This document shows positions 23,226 to 52,906 of a DNA stretch of 64,000 nt, piece after piece. Position numbers and translations under genes: made by a program. Numbering within the stretch: the stretch's first letter is position 1; each line of letters starts with the position of its first letter. This stretch comes from Escherichia coli (GTDB taxonomy: Bacteria > Pseudomonadota > Gammaproteobacteria > Enterobacterales > Enterobacteriaceae). The notes beneath the pieces were generated by a model. It saw only the letters and a program-made list of their open reading frames with translations. It had not been told where the DNA came from and ran no database searches. The DNA lies in assembly GCF_016903815.1 (NCBI RefSeq), contig NZ_CP069973.1; one strand, written 5' to 3'.

Positions 23226-23404
23226 TCCCGCTGAAATCGTCGACTTACCTCCTTTCGCCCTGTATGCAGTCTATCGCTGACTTGCGGATAAAATAGTTTC
23301 CAGTGTGATTATTGCGTAACGTCTCGCAAAGAATATTTGCTGGCAGGATCGCAGACTGCAAAGCCTGCAGATTGACAATCTTATCGTGAAGGCATACTTT
23401 CAGG

Positions 23405-28000: not shown

Positions 28001-28147
28001 CGTCGTCCGTTAGGCATCGGCATGGTCGGCGGCCTGATTGTCAGCCAGGTGCTGACGCTGTTCACCACGCCGGTGATTTATCTGCTGTTCGACCGCCTGG
28101 CATTGTGGACCAAAAGTCGCTTTGCTCGCCATGAAGAGGAGGCGTAA
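25025..28147 (+). CDS. mdtB: Multidrug efflux RND transporter permease MdtB
   Basis: 1040-aa 12-TM RND protein; synteny mdtA-B-C-D-baeSR. Confidence 0.9.
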
Positions 28148-31100
28148 GTGAAGTTTTTTGCCCTCTTCATTTACCGCCCGGTGGCGACGATTTTACTGTC
28201 GGTCGCCATTACCCTATGCGGCATACTGGGTTTCCGTATGCTGCCGGTCGCCCCGCTGCCGCAGGTCGATTTTCCGGTGATTATGGTTAGCGCCTCGCTG
28301 CCCGGTGCGTCGCCGGAGACAATGGCGTCTTCCGTTGCCACGCCGCTGGAACGCTCACTTGGGCGCATTGCCGGGGTCAGTGAAATGACCTCCAGCAGTT
28401 CGCTCGGCAGCACGCGTATTATTTTGCAGTTTGATTTTGACCGGGATATCAACGGTGCGGCGCGTGATGTGCAGGCGGCGATCAACGCCGCACAAAGTCT
28501 GCTGCCCAGTGGGATGCCCAGCCGCCCGACTTATCGCAAAGCGAACCCGTCGGATGCGCCAATTATGATCCTGACGCTAACCTCCGATACTTATTCGCAG
28601 GGTGAACTGTACGATTTCGCCTCGACGCAGCTGGCTCCGACGATTTCGCAAATCGACGGCGTCGGTGATGTCGATGTTGGCGGCAGCTCGCTGCCCGCCG
28701 TGCGCGTCGGGCTGAACCCGCAGGCGCTGTTTAATCAGGGCGTGTCGCTGGACGACGTACGCACTGCCATCAGCAATGCCAACGTGCGTAAACCGCAGGG
28801 GGTGCTGGAAGATGGCACTCACCGCTGGCAGATCCAGACCAATGATGAGCTAAAAACCGCCGCTGAATATCAGCCGTTGATTATTCATTACAACAACGGC
28901 GGCGCGGTTCGTCTGGGCGATGTGGCGACGGTGACCGACTCAGTGCAGGATGTGCGCAACGCCGGGATGACCAACGCCAAACCGGCTATTTTGCTGATGA
29001 TCCGCAAGCTGCCGGAAGCCAATATTATCCAGACGGTTGACAGCATCCGGGCAAAATTACCGGAGTTGCAGGAGACCATTCCGGCGGCGATTGATCTGCA
29101 AATTGCCCAGGATCGCTCCCCCACCATTCGCGCCTCGCTGGAAGAAGTCGAGCAAACGCTGATTATCTCGGTGGCGCTGGTGATTCTGGTGGTCTTTTTA
29201 TTCCTGCGCTCGGGTCGCGCCACTATTATTCCCGCCGTTGCGGTGCCGGTTTCGCTGATTGGTACGTTTGCGGCGATGTACCTGTGCGGTTTCAGTCTCA
29301 ATAATCTTTCGTTAATGGCGCTCACCATTGCTACTGGTTTCGTGGTGGATGACGCCATCGTGGTGCTGGAAAACATTGCACGTCATCTGGAAGCGGGAAT
29401 GAAACCGTTGCAAGCCGCACTGCAAGGTACTCGCGAAGTCGGTTTTACGGTGCTGTCGATGAGTCTGTCACTGGTGGCGGTGTTCCTGCCGCTGCTGTTG
29501 ATGGGCGGATTGCCGGGCCGACTGTTACGCGAGTTTGCCGTGACGCTTTCTGTCGCCATTGGTATTTCGTTGCTGGTTTCCCTGACGCTAACGCCGATGA
29601 TGTGTGGCTGGATGCTGAAAGCCAGCAAGCCGCGCGAGCAAAAGCGACTACGTGGTTTTGGTCGCATGTTGGTAGCCCTGCAACAAGGCTACGGCAAGTC
29701 ACTGAAATGGGTGCTCAATCATACCCGTCTGGTGGGCGTGGTGCTGCTTGGCACCATTGCACTGAATATCTGGCTGTATATCTCGATCCCGAAAACCTTC
29801 TTCCCGGAGCAGGACACCGGCGTGTTGATGGGCGGGATACAGGCGGATCAGAGTATTTCGTTTCAGGCGATGCGCGGTAAGTTGCAGGATTTCATGAAAA
29901 TTATCCGTGACGATCCAGCAGTGGATAATGTCACCGGATTTACCGGCGGTTCGCGGGTGAACAGCGGGATGATGTTTATCACCCTCAAGCCACGCGGCGA
30001 ACGCAGCGAAACGGCGCAGCAAATTATCGACCGTCTGCGCGTGAAGCTGGCGAAAGAACCGGGGGCGAATCTGTTCCTGATGGCGGTACAGGATATTCGC
30101 GTTGGCGGACGTCAGTCGAACGCCAGCTATCAGTACACGTTACTGTCCGACGACCTGGCGGCACTGCGCGAATGGGAACCGAAAATCCGCAAAAAACTGG
30201 CGACATTGCCGGAACTGGCGGACGTGAACTCCGACCAGCAGGATAACGGCGCGGAGATGAATCTGGTTTACGACCGCGACACCATGGCACGGCTGGGAAT
30301 CGACGTGCAAGCCGCCAACAGTCTGTTAAATAACGCCTTCGGTCAGCGGCAAATCTCGACCATTTACCAGCCGATGAACCAGTATAAAGTGGTGATGGAA
30401 GTGGATCCGCGCTATACCCAGGACATCAGCGCGCTGGAAAAAATGTTCGTTATCAATAACGAAGGAAAAGCGATCCCGCTGTCGTATTTCGCTAAATGGC
30501 AACCGGCGAATGCTCCGCTGTCGGTGAATCATCAGGGATTATCGGCAGCCTCGACCATCTCGTTCAACCTGCCGACCGGGAAATCGCTCTCGGACGCCAG
30601 TGCAGCGATCGATCGCGCAATGACCCAGCTTGGTGTGCCTTCGACGGTGCGCGGTAGTTTTGCCGGCACGGCGCAGGTGTTCCAGGAGACGATGAACTCG
30701 CAGGTGATCCTGATTATCGCCGCCATCGCCACGGTGTATATCGTGCTGGGTATCCTTTACGAGAGTTACGTACATCCGCTGACGATTCTCTCCACCCTGC
30801 CCTCGGCGGGCGTTGGAGCGCTGCTGGCGCTGGAACTGTTCAATGCCCCGTTCAGCCTAATCGCCCTGATAGGGATCATGCTATTAATCGGCATCGTAAA
30901 GAAAAACGCCATCATGATGGTCGATTTTGCGCTTGAAGCCCAACGGCACGGTAACCTGACGCCGCAGGAAGCTATTTTCCAGGCCTGTCTGCTGCGTTTT
31001 CGCCCGATTATGATGACTACCCTGGCGGCGCTGTTTGGCGCGCTGCCGCTGGTGTTGTCGGGCGGTGACGGCTCGGAGCTGCGCCAACCCCTGGGGATCA

Positions 31101-31225
31101 CCATTGTCGGCGGTCTGGTAATGAGCCAGCTTCTGACGCTGTATACCACGCCGGTGGTGTATCTCTTTTTCGACCGTCTGCGGCTGCGTTTTTCGCGTAA
31201 ACCTAAACAAACGGTAACCGAGTAA
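28148..31225 (+). CDS. mdtC: Multidrug efflux RND transporter permease MdtC
   Basis: 1025-aa RND paralogue directly after mdtB; GTG start at 28148. Confidence 0.9.
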
Positions 31226-32641
31226 ATGACAGATCTTCCCGACAGCACCCGCTGGCAATTGTGGATTGTGGCTTTCGGCTTCTTTATGCAGTCGCTGGAC
31301 ACCACCATCGTCAACACCGCGCTTCCCTCAATGGCACAAAGCCTCGGGGAAAGTCCGTTGCGTATGCACATGGTCATTGTCTCTTATGTACTGACCGTGG
31401 CGGTGATGTTGCCTGCCAGCGGCTGGCTGGCGGACAAAGTCGGCGTGCGCAATATTTTCTTTACCGCCATCGTGCTGTTTACCCTCGGTTCACTGTTTTG
31501 CGCGCTTTCCGGCACGCTGAACGAACTGTTGCTGGCACGCGCGTTACAGGGCGTTGGCGGTGCGATGATGGTGCCGGTCGGCAGATTGACGGTGATGAAA
31601 ATCGTACCGCGCGAGCAATATATGGCGGCGATGACCTTTGTCACAGTGCCCGGTCAGGTCGGTCCGCTGCTGGGTCCGGCGCTCGGCGGTCTGCTGGTGG
31701 AGTACGCATCGTGGCACTGGATCTTTTTGATCAACATTCCGGTGGGGATTATCGGTGCGATCGCAACACTAATGTTGATGCCGAACTACACCATGCAGAC
31801 GCGGCGCTTTGATCTTTCCGGCTTTTTATTGCTGGCGGTTGGCATGGCGGTATTAACCCTGGCGCTGGATGGCAGTAAAGGTACAGGTTTATCGCCGCTG
31901 GCGATTACTGGCCTGGTCGCTGTTGGCGTGGTAGCACTGGTGCTTTATCTGCTGCACGCCAGAAATAACAACCGCGCTCTTTTCAGTCTGAAACTGTTCC
32001 GCACTCGCACCTTTTCGCTGGGCCTGGCGGGGAGCTTTGCCGGACGTATTGGCAGTGGTATGTTGCCCTTTATGACGCCGGTTTTCCTGCAAATTGGCCT
32101 TGGCTTCTCACCGTTTCATGCCGGACTGATGATGATCCCGATGGTGCTTGGCAGCATGGGGATGAAGCGGATTGTTGTACAGGTGGTGAATCGCTTTGGT
32201 TATCGTCGGGTACTGATAGCGACCACGCTGGGTCTGTCGCTGGTCACCCTGTTGTTTATGACTACCGCTCTGTTGGGCTGGTACTACGTTTTGCCGTTCG
32301 TCCTGTTTTTACAAGGGATGGTCAACTCGACCCGTTTCTCCTCCATGAACACCCTGACGCTGAAAGATCTCCCGGACAATCTGGCGAGCAGCGGCAATAG
32401 TCTGCTGTCGATGATTATGCAATTGTCGATGAGTATCGGCGTCACCATCGCCGGGCTGTTGCTGGGACTTTTTGGTTCGCAGCATGTCAGCGTCGACAGC
32501 GGCACCACACAAACCGTCTTTATGTACACCTGGCTTAGCATGGCGTTTATCATCGCCCTTCCGGCGTTCATCTTTGCCAGAGTGCCGAACGATACGCATC
32601 AAAATGTAGCTATTTCGCGGCGAAAAAGGAGCGCGCAATGA
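31226..32641 (+). CDS. mdtD: MFS transporter MdtD
   Basis: 471-aa polytopic MFS-like protein; synteny. Confidence 0.9.
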
Positions 32642-34041
32642 AGTTCTGGCGACCCGGTATTACCGGCAAACTGTTTCTGGCGATTTTCGCCACCTGCATT
32701 GTCTTGCTGATCAGTATGCACTGGGCGGTGCGTATCAGTTTTGAGCGTGGCTTTATTGATTACATCAAGCATGGTAATGAACAGCGATTACAACTGTTAA
32801 GTGATGCGCTTGGCGAGCAGTATGCGCAGCATGGCAACTGGCGCTTCCTGCGCAACAATGATCGCTTTGTCTTTCAGATCTTGCGTTCATTTGAACACGA
32901 TAATTCGGAAGATAAACCCGGCCCGGGTATGCCGCCGCACGGCTGGCGTACCCAGTTCTGGGTGGTCGATCAAAACAACAAAGTGCTGGTTGGTCCGCGA
33001 GCGCCGATTCCACCTGACGGTACACGGCGACCCATTCTGGTCAACGGTGCGGAAGTGGGTGCGGTGATTGCCTCCCCTGTTGAGCGACTGACCCGCAATA
33101 CTGATATCAATTTCGATAAACAACAGCGGCAAACCAGCTGGCTGATTGTTGCTCTGGCAACGTTACTCGCGGCACTCGCTACCTTTCTGCTGGCGCGTGG
33201 TTTGCTGGCACCGGTAAAACGGCTGGTGGACGGCACGCACAAACTGGCGGCGGGCGATTTCACTACCCGCGTAACGCCCACCAGTGAAGATGAACTGGGC
33301 AAACTGGCGCAAGACTTCAACCAGCTTGCCAGCACGCTGGAGAAAAACCAGCAAATGCGGCGCGATTTTATGGCCGATATTTCTCACGAACTGCGTACGC
33401 CATTAGCGGTGCTGCGCGGTGAACTGGAAGCCATTCAGGATGGCGTGCGTAAATTCACGCCGGAGACGGTGGCGTCTTTACAGGCGGAGGTCGGTACACT
33501 GACCAAACTGGTTGACGATCTCCATCAGTTGTCGATGTCTGATGAAGGCGCTCTCGCCTATCAAAAAGCACCGGTAGATTTGATCCCACTGCTGGAAGTG
33601 GCGGGCGGCGCATTTCGCGAACGATTCGCCAGCCGTGGCCTGAAACTGCAATTTTCCCTGCCAGACAGTATTACCGTATTTGGCGATCGCGACCGTTTAA
33701 TGCAGTTATTCAATAACTTACTGGAAAACAGCCTGCGCTACACTGACAGCGGCGGTAGCCTGAAAATCTCTGCCGGGCAGCACGACAAAACGGTGCGACT
33801 GACCTTTGCCGACAGCGCGCCGGGCGTCAGTGACGATCAGCTACAAAAATTGTTTGAACGTTTTTATCGCACCGAAGGTTCCCGCAACCGAGCCAGCGGC
33901 GGTTCCGGGCTGGGGCTGGCGATTTGCCTGAACATTGTTGAAGCACATAATGGTCGCATTATTGCTGCCCATTCGCCTTTTGGCGGGGTAAGCATTACAG
34001 TAGAGTTACCGCTGGAACGGGATTTACAGAGAGAAGTATGA
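32638..34041 (+). CDS. baeS: Envelope-stress sensor histidine kinase BaeS
   Basis: 467-aa ORF with HAMP, H-box ([10 protein letters not shown]) and HATPase motifs; 4-bp overlap with mdtD. Confidence 0.9.
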
Positions 34042-34760
34042 CCGAGTTACCAATCGACGAAAACACACCGCGTATTTTGATCGTGGAAGATGAACCGAAG
34101 CTGGGACAGTTGCTCATTGATTATCTGCGTGCTGCGAGCTATGCGCCGACGCTTATCAGCCACGGCGATCAGGTACTGCCGTATGTGCGCCAGACACCAC
34201 CGGATCTGATCCTGTTGGATCTGATGCTCCCTGGCACCGATGGCTTGACGCTGTGCCGGGAAATTCGTCGTTTTTCTGACATTCCTATCGTGATGGTGAC
34301 GGCAAAAATAGAAGAGATCGACCGCCTGCTCGGACTGGAGATTGGCGCAGATGATTATATCTGTAAGCCGTACAGCCCACGGGAAGTGGTAGCGCGCGTC
34401 AAAACCATTTTGCGCCGTTGCAAACCGCAGCGTGAGTTGCAGCAACAGGATGCTGAAAGCCCGTTGATTATCGACGAAGGTCGTTTTCAGGCTTCATGGC
34501 GCGGTAAAATGCTTGACCTGACGCCTGCGGAATTTCGTCTGCTGAAAACGCTCTCTCATGAACCAGGAAAAGTGTTCTCCCGCGAGCAATTGCTCAATCA
34601 TCTTTATGACGACTACCGCGTAGTAACCGACCGCACCATCGACAGCCACATTAAAAACCTGCGCCGCAAGCTGGAATCTCTCGACGCCGAACAGTCCTTT
34701 ATCCGTGCCGTTTACGGCGTCGGTTACCGCTGGGAAGCCGACGCCTGCCGCATCGTTTAA
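34038..34760 (+). CDS. baeR: OmpR-family response regulator BaeR
   Basis: 240-aa ORF with receiver domain and winged-helix C-terminus; 4-bp overlap with baeS. Confidence 0.9.
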
Positions 34761-34939
34761 CATTTTTACCTGCCGGAGAAGGCATTCACGCCGCATCCGG
34801 CAACATAATCCCACGCATGGTCAGCAAACTGACATTATCTCTCCGCCCTGGCAGGCACCAGAAAATCGCTCATACTTTAATCGGTAAACAGTCCTTTTAG
34901 ATGCTGTTTTCGATACGCAATTTCAATCAAGGAGTCATT

Positions 34940-35272
34940 ATGGCTGGTTGGTTTGAACTCAGTAAAAGCAGTGATAATCAATTTCGGTTTGTGCTAAAAG
35001 CGGGCAATGGTGAGACTATCCTTACCAGCGAGCTGTATACCTCAAAAGCCTCTGCGGAAAAGGGCATCGCGTCGGTGCGTAGCAACAGCCCGCAAGAAGA
35101 ACGCTATGAGAAAAAAACGGCAAGCAACGGCAAATTCTATTTCAATCTGAAAGCCGCTAATCATCAAATTATCGGCTCCAGCCAGATGTACGCCACCGCG
35201 CAATCTCGTGAAACCGGAATTGCCTCCGTTAAAGCCAATGGCACAAGCCAGACGGTGAAAGACAATACGTAA
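34940..35272 (+). CDS. yegP: UPF0339 family protein YegP (tandem DUF1508 repeats)
   Basis: Start MAGWFELSKSSDNQFRFVLKAGNGE gives 110 aa; two internal repeats. Confidence 0.85.
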   Translation: MAGWFELSKSSDNQFRFVLKAGNGETILTSELYTSKASAEKGIASVRSNSPQEERYEKKTASNGKFYFNLKAANHQIIGSSQMYATAQSRETGIASVKANGTSQTVKDNT

Positions 35273-35419
35273 TTACGATGCCGGGCGTGGGTTGTTGGCG
35301 TCCGGCGCTTTACCAGCTCCCCCCTACAGCGCTACAATGCCCGCCCTTAAAGTGGGGGCACTCCCCTGGCCGCTTCATCAGGTGAAGCGGATCTGACCTG
35401 TCATCAGAACGAGAGAATT

Positions 35420-36781
35420 ATGTTTAAACCGGAACTCCTTTCCCCGGCGGGAACGCTGAAAAATATGCGTTACGCTTTCGCTTATGGCGCAGATGCTGTT
35501 TATGCGGGCCAGCCGCGTTACTCCCTGCGTGTGCGCAACAACGAATTTAACCACGAAAATCTTCAGCTCGGCATCAATGAAGCCCACGCGCTGGGGAAAA
35601 AGTTTTATGTCGTGGTCAACATTGCACCGCACAACGCCAAGCTGAAAACCTTTATCCGTGACCTGAAACCGGTGGTGGAAATGGGGCCGGATGCGCTGAT
35701 TATGTCTGATCCAGGGCTGATTATGCTGGTGCGCGAGCACTTCCCTGAAATGCCGATCCATCTCTCAGTACAGGCTAACGCCGTGAACTGGGCGACGGTG
35801 AAATTCTGGCAGCAAATGGGTCTGACCCGCGTGATCCTCTCTCGCGAACTGTCACTGGAAGAGATTGAAGAGATCCGCAATCAGGTGCCAGATATGGAGA
35901 TCGAAATCTTCGTTCACGGCGCGCTGTGCATGGCCTACTCCGGTCGCTGCCTGCTCTCTGGCTATATCAACAAGCGCGACCCGAACCAGGGCACCTGCAC
36001 CAACGCCTGCCGCTGGGAGTATAACGTCCAGGAAGGGAAAGAAGATGACGTCGGCAACATCGTACACAAGTACGAACCGATTCCGGTGCAAAACGTTGAA
36101 CCGACGCTGGGGATCGGCGCACCAACCGACAAAGTGTTTATGATCGAAGAAGCCCAGCGTCCGGGCGAGTATATGACCGCGTTTGAAGATGAGCACGGCA
36201 CTTACATCATGAACTCGAAAGATCTGCGCGCCATCGCCCATGTTGAACGCCTGACCAAAATGGGCGTGCATTCGCTGAAAATCGAAGGCCGTACCAAATC
36301 TTTCTACTATTGCGCACGCACCGCGCAGGTTTACCGTAAAGCTATCGATGACGCAGCTGCGGGAAAACCATTCGATACCAGCCTGCTGGAAACCCTGGAA
36401 GGTCTGGCGCATCGTGGCTATACCGAAGGTTTCCTGCGTCGTCATACTCACGACGATTATCAGAACTACGAATACGGTTATTCAGTTTCTGACCGCCAGC
36501 AGTTTGTTGGTGAGTTTACCAGTGAGCGCAAGGGCGACCTCGCGGCGGTAGCGGTGAAAAATAAATTCTCCGTTGGCGACAGCCTTGAGCTGATGACGCC
36601 GCAAGGGAACATTAACTTTACCCTTGAGCACATGGAAAACGCCAAAGGCGAAGCAATGCCGGTCGCACCGGGCGATGGTTATACTGTGTGGATCCCGGTG
36701 CCGCAGGATCTTGAGCTAAATTACGCGCTGCTGATGCGTAATTTCTCCGGGGAAACCACGCGTAACCCCCACGGTAAGTGA
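35420..36781 (+). CDS. yegQ: Peptidase U32 family protein YegQ (TrhP-type tRNA hydroxylation factor)
   Basis: 453-aa ORF; size and synteny before cyaR. Confidence 0.85.
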   Translation: MFKPELLSPAGTLKNMRYAFAYGADAVYAGQPRYSLRVRNNEFNHENLQLGINEAHALGKKFYVVVNIAPHNAKLKTFIRDLKPVVEMGPDALIMSDPGLIMLVREHFPEMPIHLSVQANAVNWATVKFWQQMGLTRVILSRELSLEEIEEIRNQVPDMEIEIFVHGALCMAYSGRCLLSGYINKRDPNQGTCTNACRWEYNVQEGKEDDVGNIVHKYEPIPVQNVEPTLGIGAPTDKVFMIEEAQRPGEYMTAFEDEHGTYIMNSKDLRAIAHVERLTKMGVHSLKIEGRTKSFYYCARTAQVYRKAIDDAAAGKPFDTSLLETLEGLAHRGYTEGFLRRHTHDDYQNYEYGYSVSDRQQFVGEFTSERKGDLAAVAVKNKFSVGDSLELMTPQGNINFTLEHMENAKGEAMPVAPGDGYTVWIPVPQDLELNYALLMRNFSGETTRNPHGK

Positions 36782-36815
36782 TTAATTTCGATTATTTTTC
36801 CCGGATGGAAAATTC

Positions 36816-36831
36816 TTAGAAACCGATCACA
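36816..36831 (+). promoter_or_regulatory. CRP binding site of the cyaR promoter
   Basis: ttagaaaccgatcaca matches the TGTGA-N6-TCACA consensus on the complementary strand; a -10-like ttatcat follows about 20 bp downstream. Confidence 0.6.
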
Positions 36832-36865
36832 TACAGCTGCATTTATTAAGGTTATCATCTGTTTC

Positions 36866-36952
36866 GCTGAAAAACATAACCCATAAAATGCTAGCTGTAC
36901 CAGGAACCACCTCCTTAGCCTGTGTAATCTCCCTTACACGGGCTTATTTTTT
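36866..36952 (+). ncRNA. cyaR: CyaR (RyeE) Hfq-dependent sRNA
   Basis: gctgaaaaacataacccataaaatgctagctgtaccaggaaccacctccttagcctgtgtaatctcccttacacgggcttatttttt matches the remembered CyaR sequence, including terminator hairpin and U-tract. Confidence 0.85.
36926..36952. other. P2 attachment core (27 nt), host/prophage junction overlapping the cyaR terminator
   Basis: aatctcccttacacgggcttatttttt is the reverse complement of the P2 att core AAAAAATAAGCCCGTGTAAGGGAGATT as recalled; ogr begins about 100 bp further on. Confidence 0.7.
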
Positions 36953-37053
36953 ACGCGTAACACAATGAAATAAAAGGATTTATTTCTGGTCACGTCCACA
37001 CATTGACCACATCGACAAAAAAGCCCCTCGACTGAGGGGCTTCCTGTTTGTAA

Positions 37054-37272
37054 TTACATCCACATAATTTGCTGCCCTGACGGCAACGGGTGCGGTCTTA
37101 CGGCGTGGACTTCTCCCGGCTTCACGATGTATCGCTGTACCGACTCATAAGTGATGAATGTGGCGCTGCAATTCACGTTCTGACACTGGTGATAACGCTC
37201 TTTTGTCGTGTCAGTGATATAGCGGCTTGTACGCGCATGTGCGGCATGCTGGCATAAAGGACAATGAAACAT
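37054..37272 (-). CDS. ogr: Late gene transcription activator Ogr (zinc finger)
   Basis: Internal start MFHCPLCQHAAHARTSRYITDTTKERYHQCQNVNCSATF gives 72 aa with a Cys4 motif. Confidence 0.9.
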   Translation of the reverse strand: MFHCPLCQHAAHARTSRYITDTTKERYHQCQNVNCSATFITYESVQRYIVKPGEVHAVRPHPLPSGQQIMWM

Positions 37273-37353
37273 CGCGAGCACCTCTTCCGGTTTTGTTGAT
37301 GGTGCCATTTTAGTTAATTTATCCTTATAAAACAAACAGATAAATAAATTACA

Positions 37354-38517
37354 TCACTCATCATCTTCTGTTTCGTACTCCACATCAGAAAGCCTGACCT
37401 CAAGCTCTAAGGACGTCGTGAAGCCGCTATTATTCAGAAAATGTGTCACCTTAGTGATTGTCCAGTCCTGCTCGTCTATGACGCGCTTAAAGCCTGATAC
37501 TTTAACCGGTGTTTCCGTGTAAATATCAGCACGACCGGTAGCCAGGCTGATGGAGAACTCCGCAACGCCCCGTTGCAGTTTATCCCACTTCGCCTGAGCG
37601 GCACGCATGGCCTGTGCTTTCGTGGCATATACCGTGGTCAGGGCAAAAACGTTGTCAGCCTCACCGGCCATGTATTCACCTTCGCGCGCTTCCGGTACTT
37701 TTGGCGCTTTCTTCTGCCTGACCGGTTTTGCTTTCGGGTGCTCCAGTGCGCGCAGGTGTTTTTCTTTCTTTTTGCGTTTCAGTTTTACCTTCTGCTTTTG
37801 CGGCTTCGGGTCTTTGGTGTGTAACCACTTTGCCGTTACGCCGGTATAGGCTCCACGGTCAGCAATCGCAAAATGATGGCGGTCGCCGTCGCTGCGGGTG
37901 ATGGTAATCTGCGGGATTTTTTTACCGCTGGCCGTCACCCCCTGCCCCGCTTTGAGAAACAGCAGTTTTCCCATTTTTACCGACACCTCACCGCCGTTGC
38001 GTTCTGCAAGACGGGTCAGGAATTTCGCATCAGACTCCTGCGACTGGTCGATGTGCGGGATTTTAATTCCGGCCAGTGACGGAGCGACACTGGCTTCCAG
38101 CCTGTTACGGGAGGCTATCGCCTCAACAATCGCACCGAGCGTGGTGTCATGCCAGGAGCCTTCCCGGCGGGAATTGAGCGTCCCGCGGAAATCTGCACTC
38201 CGGGCGCGGATGGTGACCACATCCGGCGCGCCCCGGTGTTCAACCTCATCAACGGTGAATTTCCCTTTGCATACCAGGGCAAAACCTTTCCAGCCGATAT
38301 ACACCGTCAGGACAGCGCCACGAACCGGCAGCCCGACCTGCCCGTCGGCATCGTTCAGTTCAATATCAAGCTGGTCAGCTTCAAAGCCCCGGTTATCCGT
38401 CAGAGTCATGCTCATCAGACGGTCGCTGATATTGCCGGTAATATCCCTGCTGTCGAGCATCAGCATGTAATCCGGCGTCAGCGTACTGCCTGCATCAAAT
38501 GTCAGCGCATCCAGCAT
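37354..38517 (-). CDS. D: Tail protein D
   Basis: 387 aa, same length and position as P2 gpD. Confidence 0.85.
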   Translation of the reverse strand: MLDALTFDAGSTLTPDYMLMLDSRDITGNISDRLMSMTLTDNRGFEADQLDIELNDADGQVGLPVRGAVLTVYIGWKGFALVCKGKFTVDEVEHRGAPDVVTIRARSADFRGTLNSRREGSWHDTTLGAIVEAIASRNRLEASVAPSLAGIKIPHIDQSQESDAKFLTRLAERNGGEVSVKMGKLLFLKAGQGVTASGKKIPQITITRSDGDRHHFAIADRGAYTGVTAKWLHTKDPKPQKQKVKLKRKKKEKHLRALEHPKAKPVRQKKAPKVPEAREGEYMAGEADNVFALTTVYATKAQAMRAAQAKWDKLQRGVAEFSISLATGRADIYTETPVKVSGFKRVIDEQDWTITKVTHFLNNSGFTTSLELEVRLSDVEYETEDDE

Positions 38518-38996
38518 TATCCCGCCCCCATCATACCTGTGAATCTGGTCGCCAGACTGCCGGCCTTACCGATGAGCGACTCCGCCTGTTTACCGATATC
38601 GCCATAAAGCGCGGCCAGTGATTCATCAACGCGGGTGAGCGACAGCGTAAAATCAATTTTCCGGGGTGTGCCGTCTGCAAAGAAAATACTCCCTGTTTCA
38701 CTCACCTTGCTGATGACATACATACCGTAAATCATGCCGGTGCCATCCAGCAACGGCCACGCCCGGCCTTCCTCTGCCATCAGTCTGAGCGTGGTCATCG
38801 TCAGCTTGCCGCCGGTCAGTTCGGGATAAAGCACACCGGCAAGCGTGATGTTTTCCTCGCCCACACCGAGAAACTGAAAGGCATCCCGTTTACCGATACG
38901 GGAATTTGACGGCCAGCGATAATCTGATTCACGCTGCATGGTCTGGTGTGGCAGCGTCTGGCGCATAAAAACAAACATACCTAACGCGAGCATCAT
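38517..38996 (-). CDS. U: Tail protein U
   Basis: 159 aa, same length and position as P2 gpU. Confidence 0.85.
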   Translation of the reverse strand: MMLALGMFVFMRQTLPHQTMQRESDYRWPSNSRIGKRDAFQFLGVGEENITLAGVLYPELTGGKLTMTTLRLMAEEGRAWPLLDGTGMIYGMYVISKVSETGSIFFADGTPRKIDFTLSLTRVDESLAALYGDIGKQAESLIGKAGSLATRFTGMMGAG

Positions 38997-39010
38997 TTTT
39001 CGTCACCTCC

Positions 39011-41458
39011 TTAACCGTCATGCATCATGCTGGCACGGGCGCGCGCACGTTTATCCCGCTCGTATTTTTCGAGCGCATCCTGTAACTGGCGGTCGAGCTG
39101 AGTCCCCGGCGCAGTACCGCCCGTCAGACTGATGTGATATTCGTTTTTACTCTGGTCCACATAAGAGCGGCCAGCCGGTGCCGTAACCGGCTGATAAGCC
39201 TGATAGCCTGCATAAGAGCTGGTCGCCGGAATATAACCACCGGTGCCATACGTGGCGGCATGAGTTCTGGCGGCGGTCTGGTCAAGCGTGCCTGACTCTT
39301 TGTTGATAACACCGAGTTTTTCCAGTACCCAGTCAATACCGCTGCGCAGTTTGTTGAACGCATTAAGCGGCAGCATCAACGCGTCAGCCAGTGCCTGCCC
39401 GAACATGACGCCCGTATCACGGCAACGGTTCAGGGTGTCCCGGGTGGCTTTGACCGGGGCAATCAGGTTTTTAAACCACTGCCACGCGGCCTGTAACTTT
39501 TCGCCCAGCCAGTCAAACACCGGCTTAAGTGGCGTGAACAGTTCCCCCACCGGCGCAAATGCCGCTTTCAGCCCTTCAACCACACCGCCAAAGAATGCGC
39601 TGACAGGCTCCCAGTATTTACGGATAAGTAACGCCCCGGCGACAATGGCGGCCACCACGGCCACAACCGGCCAGCTAATCGCCCCGATGGCCGTCATAAC
39701 AGCACTGCCAACCGTCGTGAAGATTGCTCCCATTGCGCCTGCTGCCGCGATGATGGCATTGATGCCGGTGATAACCGGCCAGGCTACGAGGCCAATGGCA
39801 CCGATGACACCAATCAGTGCCAGTGCACCACCGACAATGATGCCGATGGTTAACGCCAGTGATTTGTTTTTCTGTATCCAGCCGTCGAGTTTTAACACAT
39901 ACTTTGTGGCCGTCTGCGTGAGCTTACGCAGTGCGCCTTCCTGCTGGTCAAACAGGTCAGTCCCCACCGCCTCATAAGCGGACTGAAACTCCTTAAAGTC
40001 ACCGCCGAGGTTGTCCTGCATGATATTTACCAGCTCGGCGGTCTTCCCGTCTGAGGCTTTAAACGCAGCGGTCAGTTTGTCCAGCTTTCCAGTTGAGGCG
40101 GCAGTCATCAGCACGGCGGCGGCTGAGCTGGCCTCCTCCCCGAAAATAGTTTTCATGTATTCAGCCTGCTGGGCAGTACCGAGCCGGTTTTTCTCAAAAC
40201 TGGCCTGCATTTCTTTCAGAATGGTAAATACTGGTCGAGTATTCCCTTTACTGTCTGAGGTTTTCACGCCAAGCTCTTTCAGTGCATCCCATGCTTTTCC
40301 CGTCGGTGCCTGCAGGCGGCTTAACACGGCACGGCTTCCCGTCCCCGCCATTGAACCGGTAATTTTTGCATCATGCAGCGCCCCGACCATTGCGGCGGTT
40401 TCTTCAATGCTGACACCAGCATTTTTTGCCACAGGTGCGGCATAGGTCAGCGCATCGCTCATGCCATCAAAATCGGCGGCGGTTTTGTTCATCGTCATGG
40501 AGAGAACATCCCCGATATGAGCGACCTTATCGTTTGAAAGCTGAAAGGCGGATTTCATCCCCATCAGCAGGGCGGCGTTTTCTTCCATCGTGCGACGGTT
40601 CGCCAGCGCCATATTCAGCGTGACCGGCGTTGCCGCCTGAATGGCATCAACATCCCCACCGGCTTTCGCAATAATAATCTGCGCACCGGCTGCATCATCT
40701 GCCGAGGCTGCGGTATTGTTGCCGAGCTGGCGCGCCTGCTTGCGTAGTGCAGCCATTTCGGCGGAGTCTTTTGCCACACCGAGCACAGCCTGCAATTCTG
40801 AGTTTTTCTGCGCAAACTCATAACCGGGCATCAGCAACTTAACTCCGGCCATCGTTCCCGCAGCAGCAATCCCCACACCGGCAGCGCCCACCGAGGCCAT
40901 ATTTCCGGCCAGTTCCTTTCCGGCCTGATAACGCTGTTTTACTGCGTTAAGTTTTGCCTGTTGTGCACTGACACGCGCCAGCGCGTCACGCTGACGGTTA
41001 AGCTGTGCGGTGGTTTCACTGATACGGTTTTTCAGTCCCTGCTCATCATGTGCAAGATTGCGGGTATTAATTCCCACAGCGGCCAGTTCCCGCTGCTGGC
41101 GTTTAATGGAATCTGTCAGGCGGTTATATTTCGCCTGTAAGTCCTCCGCCGCACGCTTTGCGGATTCCAGCACTTTCGCCTGAGCACGGGTCGGACGTTC
41201 GGTATTTTTAAACTGTGTGGCAAGGGCTTCGGCCTCCTGCCGAGCCTTTTCAAGTGCATGACCAGTCACGGCGAGCTGTGCACTGGTCTTGCGGAATCCC
41301 TCAATACGGGATGCCTGACCGTTCAGCTCGCGCAGTGATTTTTGTGTTTCCCGGATATCCCCCGACAGCGATTTGCTCGCTGTGCGGATGGATTTAAACG
41401 GGCGGGATGCCTGGTCAACAGCCCTGAGCAATACCTGTAATTTTACATTGTTACTCAT
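39011..41458 (-). CDS. T: Tail tape measure protein T
   Basis: 815 aa, Ala/Gln-rich coiled-coil with Gly/Ala-rich TM-like segment; same length as P2 gpT. Confidence 0.9.
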   Translation of the reverse strand: MSNNVKLQVLLRAVDQASRPFKSIRTASKSLSGDIRETQKSLRELNGQASRIEGFRKTSAQLAVTGHALEKARQEAEALATQFKNTERPTRAQAKVLESAKRAAEDLQAKYNRLTDSIKRQQRELAAVGINTRNLAHDEQGLKNRISETTAQLNRQRDALARVSAQQAKLNAVKQRYQAGKELAGNMASVGAAGVGIAAAGTMAGVKLLMPGYEFAQKNSELQAVLGVAKDSAEMAALRKQARQLGNNTAASADDAAGAQIIIAKAGGDVDAIQAATPVTLNMALANRRTMEENAALLMGMKSAFQLSNDKVAHIGDVLSMTMNKTAADFDGMSDALTYAAPVAKNAGVSIEETAAMVGALHDAKITGSMAGTGSRAVLSRLQAPTGKAWDALKELGVKTSDSKGNTRPVFTILKEMQASFEKNRLGTAQQAEYMKTIFGEEASSAAAVLMTAASTGKLDKLTAAFKASDGKTAELVNIMQDNLGGDFKEFQSAYEAVGTDLFDQQEGALRKLTQTATKYVLKLDGWIQKNKSLALTIGIIVGGALALIGVIGAIGLVAWPVITGINAIIAAAGAMGAIFTTVGSAVMTAIGAISWPVVAVVAAIVAGALLIRKYWEPVSAFFGGVVEGLKAAFAPVGELFTPLKPVFDWLGEKLQAAWQWFKNLIAPVKATRDTLNRCRDTGVMFGQALADALMLPLNAFNKLRSGIDWVLEKLGVINKESGTLDQTAARTHAATYGTGGYIPATSSYAGYQAYQPVTAPAGRSYVDQSKNEYHISLTGGTAPGTQLDRQLQDALEKYERDKRARARASMMHDG

Positions 41459-41602
41459 TCGTGTTTCCGCTTCGCCGGAGCGCCTTTTCGCGCCATGTGA
41501 TGAGTTCGGTCAGGCTCATGGGATACAGTTCTGATGGCGGCCAGTGAAATATCACTGCCACATCCGCCATCAGGTCATCGACCGACAGATTTTTTGGAAA
41601 CG

Positions 41603-41878
41603 TCACTGCACCGAGTTCGGCGACAAAAAACCGACCACCTTACCGGCCAGCGCCACAAGGTCAGGCAGTTCCAGCGCGGCGACTTCCTGCTCGGTCAGCA
41701 TCGGTGCCGTCATGCGCGGCAGCACCTTAATCAGTGCATCGACTTCAGAGTTCGCGACCGCTGCCAGACTGACACCGCGCAGCGTCCCGGCATTGGGTTT
41801 CATCAGCGTGACCTGTTCGATAACCTGCTCACCACGCTTGACCGGATTGTCCAGGGTAATCACATTTTCTTTGTTCAT
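41603..41878 (-). CDS. E: Tail assembly chaperone E (E+E' made by -1 frameshift)
   Basis: 91 aa, same as P2 gpE; slippery TTTTTTG near the 3' end. Confidence 0.85.
   Translation of the reverse strand: MNKENVITLDNPVKRGEQVIEQVTLMKPNAGTLRGVSLAAVANSEVDALIKVLPRMTAPMLTEQEVAALELPDLVALAGKVVGFLSPNSVQ
41624..41630 (-). other. Programmed -1 ribosomal frameshift slippery heptamer (TTTTTTG) for E/E'
   Basis: caaaaaa on the plus strand is ttttttg on the coding strand near the end of E; the E' extension would run to about 41460. Confidence 0.65.
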
Positions 41879-41934
41879 GGTTTTCTCACTTCTGAATCGG
41901 GGTTAACCGGTCAGCCAGGCTGACCGGATGAAAA

Positions 41935-42453
41935 TCACAGGCCGATATTGCGGCGGTGTTGCTCCAGCCGGTCGACGCCGTTCACCTTCTCAATCATGTT
42001 GATGGTGTCGATTTCGACCAGCTCCTTACCGTCCATCGTCAGCCGGAAATAGGTGCAGACCACGGAGATTTTCGACTCGGTATCTTCTCCCTGTTTGCCC
42101 TCGCCGGTGTCGATTTCTTTCTGACGTCCACGCATGACCACCTCGACGGCCACCGTTTCGCCGGTATCGTCGCGCTGGTAAGAGCCTGCAAAACGAATCG
42201 GTACGGAATCCACACCGGTTGCGGCGTAAAGCTCCCAGATAACCGAATCCGGGAAGCCACCGAGCGACCACTCCATTGACAGCGCATCGTCATCAAGGCC
42301 GAGGTCTACCGGTGCGCTGCCGTTCATCCCCGCACCGCGATAGTTTTCGAGCTTACGGGTCAGTTTTGGTAGCGTGACGGACTTCGCGACGCCCTGATAG
42401 CTGTAGCCGTTCAGAAAGACGTTCATTAACTTGAGTTTGCGCGGCATTGCCAT
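41935..42453 (-). CDS. FII: Tail tube protein FII
   Basis: 172 aa, same length and position as P2 gpFII. Confidence 0.9.
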   Translation of the reverse strand: MAMPRKLKLMNVFLNGYSYQGVAKSVTLPKLTRKLENYRGAGMNGSAPVDLGLDDDALSMEWSLGGFPDSVIWELYAATGVDSVPIRFAGSYQRDDTGETVAVEVVMRGRQKEIDTGEGKQGEDTESKISVVCTYFRLTMDGKELVEIDTINMIEKVNGVDRLEQHRRNIGL

Positions 42454-42465
42454 CGGTCAGGCTCC

Positions 42466-43656
42466 TTAATTGCTGTTAACCGAGGTGACCAGATTTGCCA
42501 GGTATTTATCGGTAATACGCTGGCGCAGGGTCAGGTTTTCAAGAGGAGGCACCGGTGTATAGTCGTAGTCGATATACAGTTTTCCGGCCTTGAGGGTTTC
42601 CGCATCGTTGGATTCTTCGCTGAACCAGCAGGTCGCATCCACGATATAGCCGTTTGTTTTCAGCTCACGGAATTTGGCATTGATGCCGTCAACGATGTCG
42701 CGAATCAGCGTTGCGGTGATGGGCTTGTCCACCGCCCACATGTGCGCCTCAGCCATCGTGTCGGCCATCACCTGCGCGGTGCGGGTGTAGTTTTCAAAGA
42801 GGAACAGCGGGTCATCAGAGCAGGTACGGTTACCCCAGAATCGGAAACCGTCGCGGCGAATCAGCGTAGTGACGCCTGACTCGTTAAGCAGGTCAGCATC
42901 GGTGCCGGACTCCTGCAAATCCCAGAATACAGATGCGCTGATGCCGGTAACACCGTTTACCCCGACGTTGGACAGCGTTTTATGCCAGCCCTGCTCCTGG
43001 TCGATTTTAGCGCGCAGACCCAGCGCACGGGCGGTGGCATACGCGGTGGCGGTGGTACTGGTGACCGTATCCCATGCGAGGAAATCCGGCCAGATGACCA
43101 TCAGCTCACGCTGGCTGAAATTCTGGCGGTAGGCTTTCACCTCGGAAATGGTCTTACAGCTCCATGCGCTGATATATCCGAAAGCGCGCAGCTTCTGACA
43201 GACGGATGCCAGTGCAACTGCCACCTCTTTGGTATCCAGTCCCGGCACACCGAGAATACGCGGTTTAACACCGGTTACCGACTCCGCCGCCAGCAGGGCT
43301 TTTAGTCCGGTGTACTGACCGTTTTCGTCGGTGGTGCCGATGATATTGGAAACGGTCTGCGCGAGTTTCGTTTCCTCGTCGTCGCCGGTGCCGTCTTCCA
43401 CACGCACGACTACGGTGACCGGTTTTGACTGGTCAGCGATGGCCTGCAACGACGCCGCCAGCGTGCCTTTTTTACCGGCCTTTGCAATTGCGCTCTGCAC
43501 ATTGGTAATCAGCACCGGTTTATTGAGGGGGAAGATTTCCGCATCCGCATCGCTGGCCGTGCAGACCATGCCGACAATGGCGGTGGATACGGTGGAAATG
43601 ACGCGGGTGCCGTCGTTAATCTCCAGCACCTGCACGCCATGATGATAGTCGCTCAT
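42466..43656 (-). CDS. FI: Contractile tail sheath protein FI
   Basis: 396 aa, same length and position as P2 gpFI. Confidence 0.9.
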   Translation of the reverse strand: MSDYHHGVQVLEINDGTRVISTVSTAIVGMVCTASDADAEIFPLNKPVLITNVQSAIAKAGKKGTLAASLQAIADQSKPVTVVVRVEDGTGDDEETKLAQTVSNIIGTTDENGQYTGLKALLAAESVTGVKPRILGVPGLDTKEVAVALASVCQKLRAFGYISAWSCKTISEVKAYRQNFSQRELMVIWPDFLAWDTVTSTTATAYATARALGLRAKIDQEQGWHKTLSNVGVNGVTGISASVFWDLQESGTDADLLNESGVTTLIRRDGFRFWGNRTCSDDPLFLFENYTRTAQVMADTMAEAHMWAVDKPITATLIRDIVDGINAKFRELKTNGYIVDATCWFSEESNDAETLKAGKLYIDYDYTPVPPLENLTLRQRITDKYLANLVTSVNSN

Positions 43657-43749
43657 CCGTTTAACTCCGTGGTTAATGGGTGCAACTATTTTCTGTTGGG
43701 CAGTGCATGAGACGCCATTTGACCTGGCTGGTCAGTGGATGAAACAACA

Positions 43750-43778
43750 GATAAAGAAAATGCGGGCAATTCGCCCGC
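43750..43778 (-). terminator. Rho-independent terminator downstream of the 197-aa cargo gene
   Basis: Minus-strand hairpin gcgggcgaattgcccgc followed by ttttctttatc. Confidence 0.5.
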
Positions 43779-43985
43779 CTGTCCTGATTTGCACACACTC
43801 ATTTTCCGACTGACAGTTTACATAGCCCAAAAGTTATCAAATCTGACAGTCTGCTTTGAGCAAGAAGCGGACATTTGCCTGTCAGGGTATATGCCGCTCT
43901 GTGGTTATTATCCAGAATCAATAATTCATCTGAGTTGGATGACATATAAAACATAGTTACTCCATGAATAACCATTAGCAGATTA

Positions 43986-44579
43986 TCAATTATGTAAATC
44001 TTTTGTTTTATGTTCTTTAGCGTATTGTGACAACAAATGGCTATAGCGTTTAAGCAAAATATTAGAAAGATTAAGCTCATTCATGAAGTGTTCTTCTAAT
44101 AAGTAACCATCAATATCAACTTTAATATCATTACCACTTTTCATCTTCTGTAACGTAGATTTCACACGCTCCAGCAGGATGCTTTGCTCATGGTAATAGT
44201 CCATAAGAAGAGTAACATCCTCTTTATCAAGCTTACTTAATTCGCTGAAGTAGGATTTAAACACTTTATCAGTCTGGTTTAATGCAATCTGTAAGCGAGG
44301 CCCCCCTAATGATTTGACATTAATGGCAAAAGGCTCGCCAACAAAATGCTCCGAATTTTCGTCAAAGCCAATATATCTCGTTTTATCAAGAAAAGTGAGA
44401 GCGCGATGGTTATTAGCGATTTCATATGCAAACATTGTTCTGATACTGTCCCTCTCAGCCTCCATGCTTATATCATCACGGTGATTTGTATAAAATATAT
44501 TTCCAACAAAGAGAACCATAGCAAGAATCACTGAACTTGCCTCCCAGTTAATATTTTTAAATCGTCGCTTAGTAAACAT
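43986..44579 (-). CDS. Hypothetical membrane-anchored protein (cargo gene at the P2 Z/fun position)
   Basis: 197-aa ORF in an AT-rich block between G and FI; N-terminal basic stretch plus one TM helix (SSVILAMVLFVGNIFY); no recognised catalytic motif. Confidence 0.6.
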   Translation of the reverse strand: MFTKRRFKNINWEASSVILAMVLFVGNIFYTNHRDDISMEAERDSIRTMFAYEIANNHRALTFLDKTRYIGFDENSEHFVGEPFAINVKSLGGPRLQIALNQTDKVFKSYFSELSKLDKEDVTLLMDYYHEQSILLERVKSTLQKMKSGNDIKVDIDGYLLEEHFMNELNLSNILLKRYSHLLSQYAKEHKTKDLHN

Positions 44580-44800
44580 ACCGCACCTTAATTATCAAAA
44601 ATATTCCTTCAGTGTTATCTGGTTAGCCTAAACCAAGTCATTAAAGTCCGCAGGATATCATATACATAAAATGTATTGATTAGAATTTGCACTAATAAAA
44701 TAATGCTTTACTGAAATCTACTCCAGACATAGAGCGGCCTGTCAGATTAGGCTTTACTCTGTGCCATAGATATGTAATCTCACACCAGAGCTTATACAAC

Positions 44801-45328
44801 TTATTGCGGCATTTCCGGCCATTCAGGATTTACAGGATCCACACGGCTGACCAGAACGCTGTAGCGTTCCCATGACTCCAGTCGTGCACGTTCCTCATCC
44901 GTCGCCATATTCAGCCTGACAGCGCGTTCCAGTGGCTGAATAACGCTTTCCGCTTCGGAAAGTAATGCGGCCTTTTGTGATTCTGCCTGTTGTTGCTGTT
45001 CATCTGCCGTATAAATCCGTTTAACCACAGCACCATCCTTAAACATCCATTTACCTGAGTCGTCAGCACGTCGGTTGGAGGTAATATCAGGAACCTCAAC
45101 AACGCTAAAACCTTCAGGGTTAAGCGTTGAAGCATCTCTGGTGATAGCGACAATAATATTATTTTCATCGTAAACAATCTTTATTGTGTCTGGCTGAAAG
45201 TTCTTCACTTCCTCATACCAGTTTTTTCCATCCTCAGAGTAAAGCCAGATAACTCCGTGTTTCTTTGTTAACTCATACTGTTCCAGTGTTTTAGCGTTAC
45301 CCGCTTTTATGTTCTTTAAGTGCATCAT
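44801..45328 (-). CDS. G: Tail fiber assembly protein G
   Basis: 175 aa, same length and position as P2 gpG. Confidence 0.85.
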
Positions 45329-45329
45329 A

Positions 45330-47351
45330 TTAAACGCTCGCTACATTATACCAGGTGCCATTTATATACTTTTGAACGGGTCTGTAATAAACGCCCGCTA
45401 TATTATCGGCAGAGTTGGACCCTGTATCCTGAACATTAATACCAGACAATACATGACCTGACGGGCACTGGAAATTCCATGTTTGCCAGTTGTTCACTCC
45501 ATAATATTGCTGTGAACCAAGTCGAACATCTTTCACATATCTGGAATCAAAATTGCCATAGTTGCCAGGAATAACTTGCGAGCCACAAAGCCAGTTACCG
45601 TTATTATCCATGTACGCCTGACCATCGGTGCCATTGGCTGTCCTTGAGTTATTAATCATGTAGATGCCAAATTGCTTGTTCCCCAGTCCACCTATCATGA
45701 ACTTGCGGTCAGCGTGATTCTGGCGAAGCAACGCCTGAGCGCTATCAGTGTTAACTATATTTTTCCCAAAGATAGCGTTGTTATCGCGCATCTGAATCCA
45801 CATACCATTACTGCTGTTAATAGCAAAACGGTCTGAAAGCGTCTCCCCTGAAACATTAAGGCCACGCCCCATCGAAACAGCGCCAGTAGCGTTATTAATC
45901 CATAATGGCCTTAATCCGTTATAAGTCCCCATGTTGTCACCGGAGTTTGTCAACATGAAGTATGTATTTGAACCATCATTACGAATAAAGAATCCGTAAT
46001 TACCATAAGCAATACGTAGGCCGTTTGCTGATTTTGATATGACTTCGCCATTTACAATGGCATTGACAAGAACATACAAAGCATCCCATTTAAGATTCAT
46101 CAGGTCTTTTGTTGTAGTACTCTGGCGGCTTCTCCATTTGAAATATTCATTGCCGTTATCCCCCGTTTCAAACCACATGAATGAATCAGTGTCACCATCG
46201 GCATCATTTTTAAATCCAATCTTCGCCCAGTCAGTATTTCGAATCCAGGCAAGGATTGAGTCGTTTTCAAAAGTAAGTCCACCGGACAAGGTATCGCCAT
46301 TTTTTTGCACGGCGTTCCCGGCTCGGTTTACCGTTTCCTGTAAACCGAGATATTCGATAACGGCGGCAACGGTCGATTTAGCCAGAATATCCCGCCCGAC
46401 TTTTGTCAGGGTTGCCAGGCTGGCAACATCATTCCCCATAAAATACGGAAACCTGTCTGCCGCAGTAGCAAGCCCCGCCAGTGCCGTCAGGGTGGCATCT
46501 TTCGGTTGCTTCCCCGCAAGCGCATTAGTCATGGTGGTAGCAAAATTCGGGTCATTGCCCAGCGCCGCCGCCAGCTCGTTCAGCGTATTCAGTGCGTCAG
46601 GCGACGAGTCTACAAGGGCGGCAATCGCGGCCATAACGAAAGCCGTGTTTGCGATCTGAGTATTATTCGTTCCCTGTCGCGCAGTTGGCGTCGTTGGCGT
46701 TCCGGTCAGTGCAGGGCTGTTTAATGGCGCTTTCTTGTTCGTTTCATCCATTACCGTCTTAACGGCTTTCGGCGTTGCAGCCAGTGTTTCAGACGTGCTG
46801 TTGGTCGCACTGCTTAACTGAGTAAAACCTTTTGCGGTCAGCGAGGCGTCAGGGTGACGTCGTGACTGTTCATGTTCTGCAATTTTGTCATCAACGTAAT
46901 CCTGCGTCGCCATCACCGTTGTGGTGTCGATGGTCAGATCCACTGAGGCCACACTGCTGACGATAATGACCATGCGGCAGGTCTGCGAACGTCCTGAGCC
47001 TTCGGCAAGGGCTGGCTTATAACTTTCGGCCATGTTCGCCACGGCAATTAACGTTCCTGCATCATCGTACAGGCCAAGCTCACGCATCCAGAAACCGCCC
47101 ACCTCCGGCGGAATAACCAGCTCTGCGATAATATAATTACTGTTTCGTTTGTCCTGGCTGATTTTGTTCAGCGCATGTCGCCAGACTTCGTGGATAAGCC
47201 CGGTCTGTCCGGCATCCGGGACAGGCAATTTACCACCGCCATCCCCGACGGCCATCGTGGTAATGTTGACCTTCCGCCCTCCCGGCGCGGTTGCCGCTGC
47301 CAGCTTTGCTGCACCGGCAGTGGTGATAACGGTTTTGAATTTTGTGCTCAT
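45330..47351 (-). CDS. H: Tail fiber protein H
   Basis: 673 aa (P2 gpH about 669 aa); Thr/Ala/Gly-rich repeats in the fiber shaft. Confidence 0.9.
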
Positions 47352-47361
47352 TATTCCTCAC

Positions 47362-48793: not shown

Positions 48794-48797
48794 GGTT

Positions 48798-49771: not shown

Positions 49772-49857
49772 TCGATAATAATGATTCTGTACAATCTCGA
49801 AGTAAATCACACCACGATTTCTGGTGCACAGAACAACAAGGGACAACAAAATCCATT

Positions 49858-50931: not shown

Positions 50932-50935
50932 TGAT

Positions 50936-50963: not shown

Positions 50964-51033
50964 TTAACATGAAAATTCAAAATAAATTATGCTAATCAAT
51001 TGATTTCTATCTTATATTCTCAGATGATTAAAT

Positions 51034-52892: not shown

Positions 52893-52906
52893 GGTGTTTA
52901 CTCCGT

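Follow-up and report, generated by a model that had tools for sequence, protein, structure and literature searches.

Junction of a P2-type prophage at the 3′ end of the small RNA gene cyaR in Escherichia coli

Introduction

The DNA analysed here is a stretch of 64,000 nucleotides from contig NZ_CP069973.1 of Escherichia coli (hereafter the window), in which the small RNA gene cyaR is followed directly by genes of a P2-type phage. The arrangement raises the question of where precisely the host gene ends and the prophage begins, and how the gene can stay whole if that boundary lies within it. cyaR is the gene of a CRP-activated, Hfq-dependent, trans-acting sRNA. A first-pass annotation, made from the letters of the window, had placed the prophage junction inside the 3′ end of cyaR and had proposed, using a sequence for the P2 att core, that integration rebuilds the 3′ end of the sRNA from phage DNA.

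The enzyme that would be involved, P2 Int, is a heterobivalent tyrosine recombinase: it binds arm-type repeats in attP and core-type sites in both attP and attB, and strands are exchanged inside the core that the two partners share (Nilsson 2011, PMC3448106). Integrases are known to target the 3′ ends of tRNA and tmRNA genes (Nilsson 2011, PMC3448106; Bobay 2013, PMC3603311), and at least one other sRNA gene, sdsR/ryeB, serves as the att site of a Salmonella phage (Frohlich 2012, PMC3333887). The cyaR locus itself has been described before. Bobay 2013 (PMC3603311), citing Wassarman 2001, gives ryeE (a synonym of cyaR) as a previously known phage target in E. coli, and “cyaR RNA” is listed as the P2-type insertion site in E. 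coli W, K-12 (ogr-D′) and B, the site being empty in Crooks (Archer 2011, PMC3032704, Table 2).

Results

In the window, cyaR (ryeE) occupies the 87 nt from 36866 to 36952 (36866..36952) on the plus strand. Its Rfam family, RF00112 (CyaR/RyeE), matched at 36864..36949 (+) with 100.7 bits, compared with a gathering score of 47, and over model positions 1-85 of 85; the gene is also identical, in 87 of 87 nt (100%), to the curated cyaR of K-12 MG1655 (b4438, 2167114..2167200, 87 nt). Upstream lies the host gene yegQ (trhP), an ORF at 35420..36781 (+) that is so annotated in strains 7/2, 98192 and MG1655, which means that the conserved synteny of CyaR is kept; the host DNA to the left of the junction comprises baeSR, yegP, yegQ and cyaR. 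Folding, a terminator scan and the Rfam consensus structure all place the intrinsic terminator of CyaR at 36917..36944 (+), where an 11-bp stem with a 6-nt loop (UCUCCC) is followed by UUAUUUUUU up to 36952. The predicted free energy of the stem-loop is −18.9 kcal/mol (z = −5.0 compared with shuffled sequences). cyaR was found in 5420 of 5426 complete E. coli genomes, was 100% identical in 4820 records and, in the same genome survey, did not vary between occupied and empty integration sites.

The 27-mer AATCTCCCTTACACGGGCTTATTTTTT occurs exactly once in the window, at 36926..36952, with a chance expectation of 0 as judged from shuffles. It is the reverse complement of the attP feature of P2 (NC_001895, 24356..24382), to which it matches in 27 of 27 positions, and the att core on which the first-pass annotation had relied was, hence, the right one; the P2 record additionally annotates an Int “attP core” site at 24356..24383. 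Since cyaR maps to 36866..36952 and the 27-mer to 36926..36952, the core coincides with the terminal 27 nt of the sRNA gene (nt 61-87), as had been claimed. The accompanying description of these nucleotides as “terminator stem and U-tract” was slightly generous, because the core contains only the last 2 nt of the 5′ arm of the terminator, together with the loop, the entire 3′ arm and UUAUUUUUU, not the whole stem. With only 2 nt of the 5′ arm inside the core, the terminator hairpin is made up of host sequence in one half and of core in the other.

On the phage side, a P2-type arm with a predicted IHF site and Int arm-type repeats directly adjoins the core, and the alignment to P2 runs through it without a gap. 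By this alignment, the IHF-binding region of the P arm of P2 attP (annotated at 24324..24357) is predicted at 36951..36984, now as prophage DNA, and the arm-type sites for Int (24293..24320 in P2; GTCCACA CAT TGACCACA) are predicted at 36988..37015, where they fit the P2-type arm consensus tgTGGaCa (Nilsson 2011, PMC3448106). They are followed by the terminator of ogr and the F operon at 37020..37043 (−), which corresponds to 24265..24288 in the P2 annotation and was also recovered by the terminator scan and by folding; its hairpin scored as terminator-like on the plus strand too, 70 nt downstream of cyaR. The gene for the late-gene activator of P2, ogr, lies at 37054..37272 (−), as indicated by the ORF, the ogrK annotation in relatives and collinearity with P2. 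Over the first 13 nt past the core on this side, the window departs from P2 and agrees with the K-12 remnant.

When both kinds of junction were aligned with P2 attP and the empty site, the cyaR junction proved to be composed of the left half of the empty site and the P-arm half of P2, whereas the int-side junction in related lysogens was composed of the P′ half of P2 and the right half of the empty site; the repeat shared by the junctions, attP and the empty site is exactly 27 bp long. The left flank of the junction is present in 5423 of 5426 complete E. coli genomes. In thousands of genomes with an empty site, where yegQ, cyaR and yegR are contiguous, similarity to the window is lost at the right edge of the core, at 36952, as seen in the comparison with empty-site strains that had been proposed (some of these alignments extend to 36960 because a few of the next bases match by chance). 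The ogr-side junction was present in 1127 of the 5426 genomes and the int-side junction in 811. P2-type integration at the 3′ end of cyaR is, consequently, not only known and described but also common.

The window ends inside the prophage, ∼6 kb short of the far junction, and the far end was therefore read in the relatives 98192 and 7/2. Strain 98192, the closest relative, is collinear with positions 27001..64000 of the window without a gap and at 99.6% identity, all of the 151 mismatches lying within the prophage. It carries an identical second core at the window equivalent of 70117..70143, which is 33,191 bp from the first. An identical second core in the same arrangement is present in strain 7/2, a closely related lysogen that is distinct from the window, despite a 1-kb query match at 100%. 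In both strains, the second core lies after a P2-type int and before yegR, and the encoded Int is identical to P2 Int in 336 of 337 residues (99.7%). The expected second copy flanking the prophage thus exists in the nearest relatives of a window that itself stops before reaching it.

Taken together, the attP × attB pattern, the RF00112 match and the P2 DNA that begins right of 36952 bear out a junction inside the 3′ end of cyaR. We conclude, with a probability of roughly 95%, that the ogr-proximal junction of a P2-type (Peduovirus) prophage lies at 36926..36952, in attB locI, the cyaR 3′ end, and arose by tyrosine-integrase recombination.

The prophage extends from 36953 to the right end of the window (36953..64000) and beyond, so that the left 27 kb of about 33.2 kb are covered, as indicated by collinear P2 blocks and the annotation of relatives. 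Right of 36952, these blocks are 96-98% identical to P2 and keep its order: IHF site, P-arm Int sites, ogr terminator, ogr, D, U, T, E, FII, FI, G, H, I, J, W, V, S, R, the lysis genes, X, L, M, N, O, P, Q and cos. Gene D (late control D/tail protein) was assigned to 37354..38517 (−) from the ORF, the annotation of relatives and P2 collinearity, and the 19-nt cohesive end of cos to 60380..60398 by an exact match to the reverse complement of P2 nt 1-19. The late region, from D through Q (portal), and cos are complete in the window, in agreement with the first-pass annotation.

The prophage differs from P2 in four segments, namely the Z/fun slot, the tail-fibre tip, the orf30 slot and the region of old, tin, orf91 and the 3′ end of gene A, all delimited by comparison with P2. 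The Z/fun slot (43872..44727, GC 0.35) holds non-P2 cargo with a 197-aa ORF at 43986..44579 (−), and the orf30 slot (49736..51028, GC 0.34) holds non-P2 cargo with a 347-aa ORF at 49888..50931 (+); neither ORF had a Pfam or PADLOC match. The orf30-slot gene is not the same in the window and in strain 7/2. The tip of the tail fibre (45375..46046) is a variable, non-P2 segment. The fourth replacement, again non-P2 cargo, starts at 60399 and runs past the window end (60399..64000, GC 0.37; also delimited from the annotation of relatives). In this type of prophage, it takes the place of old, tin, orf91 and the final 77 codons of gene A and encodes a GHKL-type ATPase (HATPase_c_3) along with two methyltransferases, namely a Methyltransf_35 protein and a C5 DNA methyltransferase, the latter cut by the end of the window. 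PADLOC gave no match for the ATPase or the Methyltransf_35 protein; the block may represent a modification or defence module that is so far uncharacterised. The window stops short of gene A, the state of which was read in 98192 and 7/2; there, it comprises residues 1-684 of 761 and is flagged as a pseudogene. Because the gene is truncated in these relatives, the prophage may not be fully replication-competent.

How cyaR would survive the insertion follows from the origin of the core. A P2-type phage would enter at locI, its preferred attB in E. coli, presumably through catalysis by Int, and its attP carries a 27-bp copy of cyaR nt 61-87. Recombination within the identical core would leave one copy on the body of cyaR; because attP carries nt 61-87, the junction next to the cyaR body regenerates the sRNA gene base for base, and because the two cores are identical, integration is neutral at the level of sequence. 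The displaced host core would then remain, orphaned, at the prophage's int end, ∼33 kb away. The core can be read as a 7-bp spacer, TTACACG, flanked by two inverted 8-bp sites, AATCTCCC and AATAAGCC (the latter as the reverse complement of GGCTTATT), and strand exchange would, on this reading, take place within the spacer, that is, at core positions 9-15. If so, the first 8 bases of the core would be host DNA, and at least the last 12 nt of CyaR (GGCUUAUUUUUU), possibly up to 19, would physically be phage DNA in the lysogen. The proposal that the 3′ end is rebuilt from phage DNA thus holds for the sequence, but probably not for all 27 nt, only for those on the phage side of the crossover.

K-12 provides another view of the same site. 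As stated in the first-pass annotation, it carries only a cryptic remnant, consisting of ogrK and the gene D fragment yegZ and annotated as PR-X. The left junction of PR-X (cyaR-core-P arm-ogr) is the same as that of the window, with about 97% identity, but PR-X keeps only 629 bp, comprising ogr and the 3′ end of gene D (yegZ), whereas the window has the full late region. In K-12-type genomes, the order is cyaR, core, P arm, ogrK, yegZ, then an 18-nt partial core and yegR; in the MG1655 annotation, PR-X overlaps cyaR, starting 18 nt before its end. The joint of the remnant falls between core positions 9 and 10 (9|10), which fits an exchange at the left edge of the spacer. At the right end of PR-X, a core-like sequence in gene D (GAACTC(C/T)GC) is joined to the core from position 10 onward, and the window contains the corresponding core-like sequence of gene D at 37546..37570. 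From its sequence, the right end of PR-X looks like the product of an Int-mediated deletion at a secondary site, not of random decay.

One genome departs from the rule that cyaR is regenerated. In E. coli O157:H7 TR01 (NZ_CP033605.1), cyaR nt 1-63 are followed by GTCAGTTATTGGTGACATTTTTT..., which is the attP core region of peduoviruses of the P24A7b/S164/pro483 type; the integrase of these phages shares only 53% identity with P2 Int. At its int side, this prophage has a perfect P2 attL with the displaced native 3′ segment of CyaR (loop, 3′ arm and U-tract), 32 kb away. The chimeric 3′ end was predicted to fold only into a weak, A/U-rich hairpin of 7 bp. Among the 5426 genomes, no second case of this configuration was seen, and an assembly error could account for it. 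If genuine, it would show the outcome of integration when the incoming core mismatches cyaR; such a core appears here to replace the Hfq-binding 3′ module of CyaR.

Other explanations of the junction, or of its consequences, were weighed against the same body of evidence. Hairpins with a T-tract are common in general, and the 27-mer might be nothing but a coincidence between terminator-like sequences, the phage genes having arrived by homologous recombination or with a genomic island. The chance of this is negligible, and the anatomy of the junction rules it out: no shuffled sequence matched the 27-mer, the breakpoints fall exactly at the edges of the core, the core is duplicated in relatives and the P2 arm sites stand in register beside it. 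The state of the element is less clear-cut. It might be a defective, locked-in prophage on its way to a K-12-like remnant, in which case the junction would be real but replication, and curing by excision, would be lost. The pseudogene state of gene A (the replication endonuclease) in both closest relatives, with the last 77 codons gone, and the presence of a 4-kb, low-GC cargo block in place of its end and of orf91, tin and old argue for this. Yet both cores are intact and identical in 98192 and 7/2, int, cox and C are intact in the relatives, with an Int nearly indistinguishable from that of P2, and all late genes and cos are intact. In addition, the ori nick site (P2 29892) lies within the retained portion of gene A, and several strains share this truncated architecture, a recurrence that speaks against random decay. 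A defective state of the prophage is, therefore, possible, though rather doubtful.

Integration might also be less neutral for CyaR than the unchanged gene sequence suggests, if the new downstream context affected how transcripts terminate or read through or how their 3′ ends form, or if it gave rise to antisense transcription into ogr; CyaR activity would then differ in lysogens. The terminator is reported to be leaky, with 41% readthrough in a plasmid-borne double-terminator assay in a Δhfq background (Morita 2022, PMC9765468), and the sequence past the U-tract is ACGCGTAA... in the lysogen versus ATGCATAA... at the empty site (6 or 7 T); transcripts reading through in a lysogen would enter the P arm, antisense towards ogr. 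However, lysogens and empty sites do not differ in any of the 87 nt of cyaR or in the first base downstream (A), the ogr terminator provides a strong terminator-like hairpin on the plus strand 70 nt downstream of cyaR, and about one-fifth of E. coli genomes carry the junction with no change seen in cyaR. A functional effect of integration on CyaR readthrough is, judging from these sequences, unlikely, and expression of CyaR would be expected to continue unaffected. Thus, integration of a P2-type phage with regeneration of cyaR remains the reading that we adopt.

Discussion

The junction in the window has the features of a classical P2 lysogen at locI, with the same 27-bp core, a P arm, IHF site and P′ arm laid out as in P2, its genes from ogr through int in P2 order and, as far as the relatives show, an almost identical Int. 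The principle is shared with phage 186 at a tRNA-Ile gene and with Fels-2 and SopE-phi at ssrA, in which an attP copy of the 3′ end of a structured RNA also regenerates the host gene. The targeted module differs, however, as in CyaR it is a Rho-independent terminator and the Hfq-binding 3′ module of a trans-acting sRNA, whereas in the tRNA and tmRNA targets it is a tRNA-like fold. The locus is, in this respect, a textbook case of a temperate phage that lands in the 3′ end of a regulatory RNA with a spare copy of it, so that the host gene survives; it is a well-resolved example and does not introduce new biology. For annotation, it implies that the boundary of such prophages should be drawn inside cyaR, and that cyaR should not be called disrupted.

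P2-like phages are found at cyaR in other genera as well. The host's own variant of the cyaR terminator is followed by a P2-type IHF site and P arm in Citrobacter, in Enterobacter, in a Buttiauxella MAG and in others. The P2-like prophages at cyaR in Citrobacter, Enterobacter, Kosakonia-like and Buttiauxella hosts have cores (ACGCAGGC, ACGCGGGC and GCGCAGGC) that match the covarying stem of each host and not the ACACGGGC of P2. A scan of IMG/VR for cores of the ACGC(A/G)GGC type yielded 32 junctions of the form cyaR|core|P-arm and 14 of the form P′|core|host-flank, and one contig carried both types of junction with identical cores. These junctions indicate that the attP core of the phages concerned matches the covarying stem of the host rather than that of P2; among the hits to the variant core in IMG/VR, which was also searched for free attP copies, there were only prophage junctions.

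The orphan core at the int end was considered as a general terminator of int, and this idea was dropped, as the corresponding region of P2 and of strain 7/2 folds with only −9.7 kcal/mol (z = +0.45). In Enterobacter-type P2-like phages, the P′-proximal sequence and the core form a strong predicted hairpin followed by U7, which is likely, from the fold, to be an int terminator that P2 lacks.

The “empty” locI of E. coli may itself have a history. The sequence that adjoins the core on the right in empty-site strains, and that lies right of the int-side core in lysogens, is similar to the P arm of P2: both share CTGGT.AC...CATTGACCACATCGA at a co-linear distance, and their local alignment scored 33-38, compared with a mean of about 15 (sd about 2.3) for shuffled sequences, none of which (0 of 1000) scored as high. 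When cyaR loci were scanned in one genome per species (120 loci), yegS was found to start ∼100 nt past the cyaR terminator in nearly all Enterobacterales, without yegR and without the arm-like sequence. Such an insert-free arrangement of cyaR and yegS was also seen in Escherichia whittamii, Escherichia sp. E1V33 and strain E69. E. coli proper has, between the core and the yegS flank, an extra 800-820 bp with 39-40% GC that contain yegR. At its left boundary, this insert has the intact core and a decayed Int site of the P arm; at its right boundary, a stretch of ∼57 nt, which takes in a decayed core, is co-linear with P′-proximal sequence and core of P2 (scores of 22-27 compared with 15.8, sd 2.1, for shuffles, 1-20 of 1000 of which reached them), and the ancestral yegS flank resumes immediately after it. 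E. albertii carries a different insert, of 3.4 kb, at the same spot, with a P2-like arm fragment.

On these grounds, we lean towards the view that cyaR is a long-standing, genus-spanning hot spot of P2-like integration, and that the “empty” locI of E. coli is probably the scar of an older P2-like insertion. In that event, the core on the cyaR side would have been kept by selection for the sRNA, and the distal core would have decayed. The 3′ end of CyaR would then have been phage-supplied in every E. coli since the ancestral event, and the orphan gene yegR would have come inside that element. YegR had no Pfam domain, and no phage homologue of it was found. A phage search with the flank right of the empty-site core, which sought a living phage with the fossil arm, returned only prophage-derived records; as such records include host flank, they lend no independent support to a fossil arm. 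It was also considered whether the E. coli-specific 3′ arm of the terminator (ACACGGGC, versus ACGCAGGC in sister species) was a phage import. This was rejected for want of support: the variants each differ from ACACAGGC by a single A-to-G step, with G-U pairs as the result, and the E. coli-type arm is also found in strain E69, which lacks the insert. Overall, these side results suggest repeated insertion and decay at one sRNA terminator, and co-variation of the phage core with the host stem, which would be of relevance to the evolution of sRNAs and to prophage domestication.

Away from the prophage, the window contains further RNA elements. Sib RNA (RF00113) is present in three tandem copies at 22709..22857, 23044..23186 and 23372..23514 (+), with 139-150 bits each. 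K-12 has two copies (sibA and sibB) at the corresponding locus, and the strain of the window appears to carry an extra Sib/Ibs toxin-antitoxin repeat by comparison. A JUMPstart element (RF01707), which is typical of the leaders of polysaccharide gene clusters, was found at 6926..6964 (−) with 57 bits.
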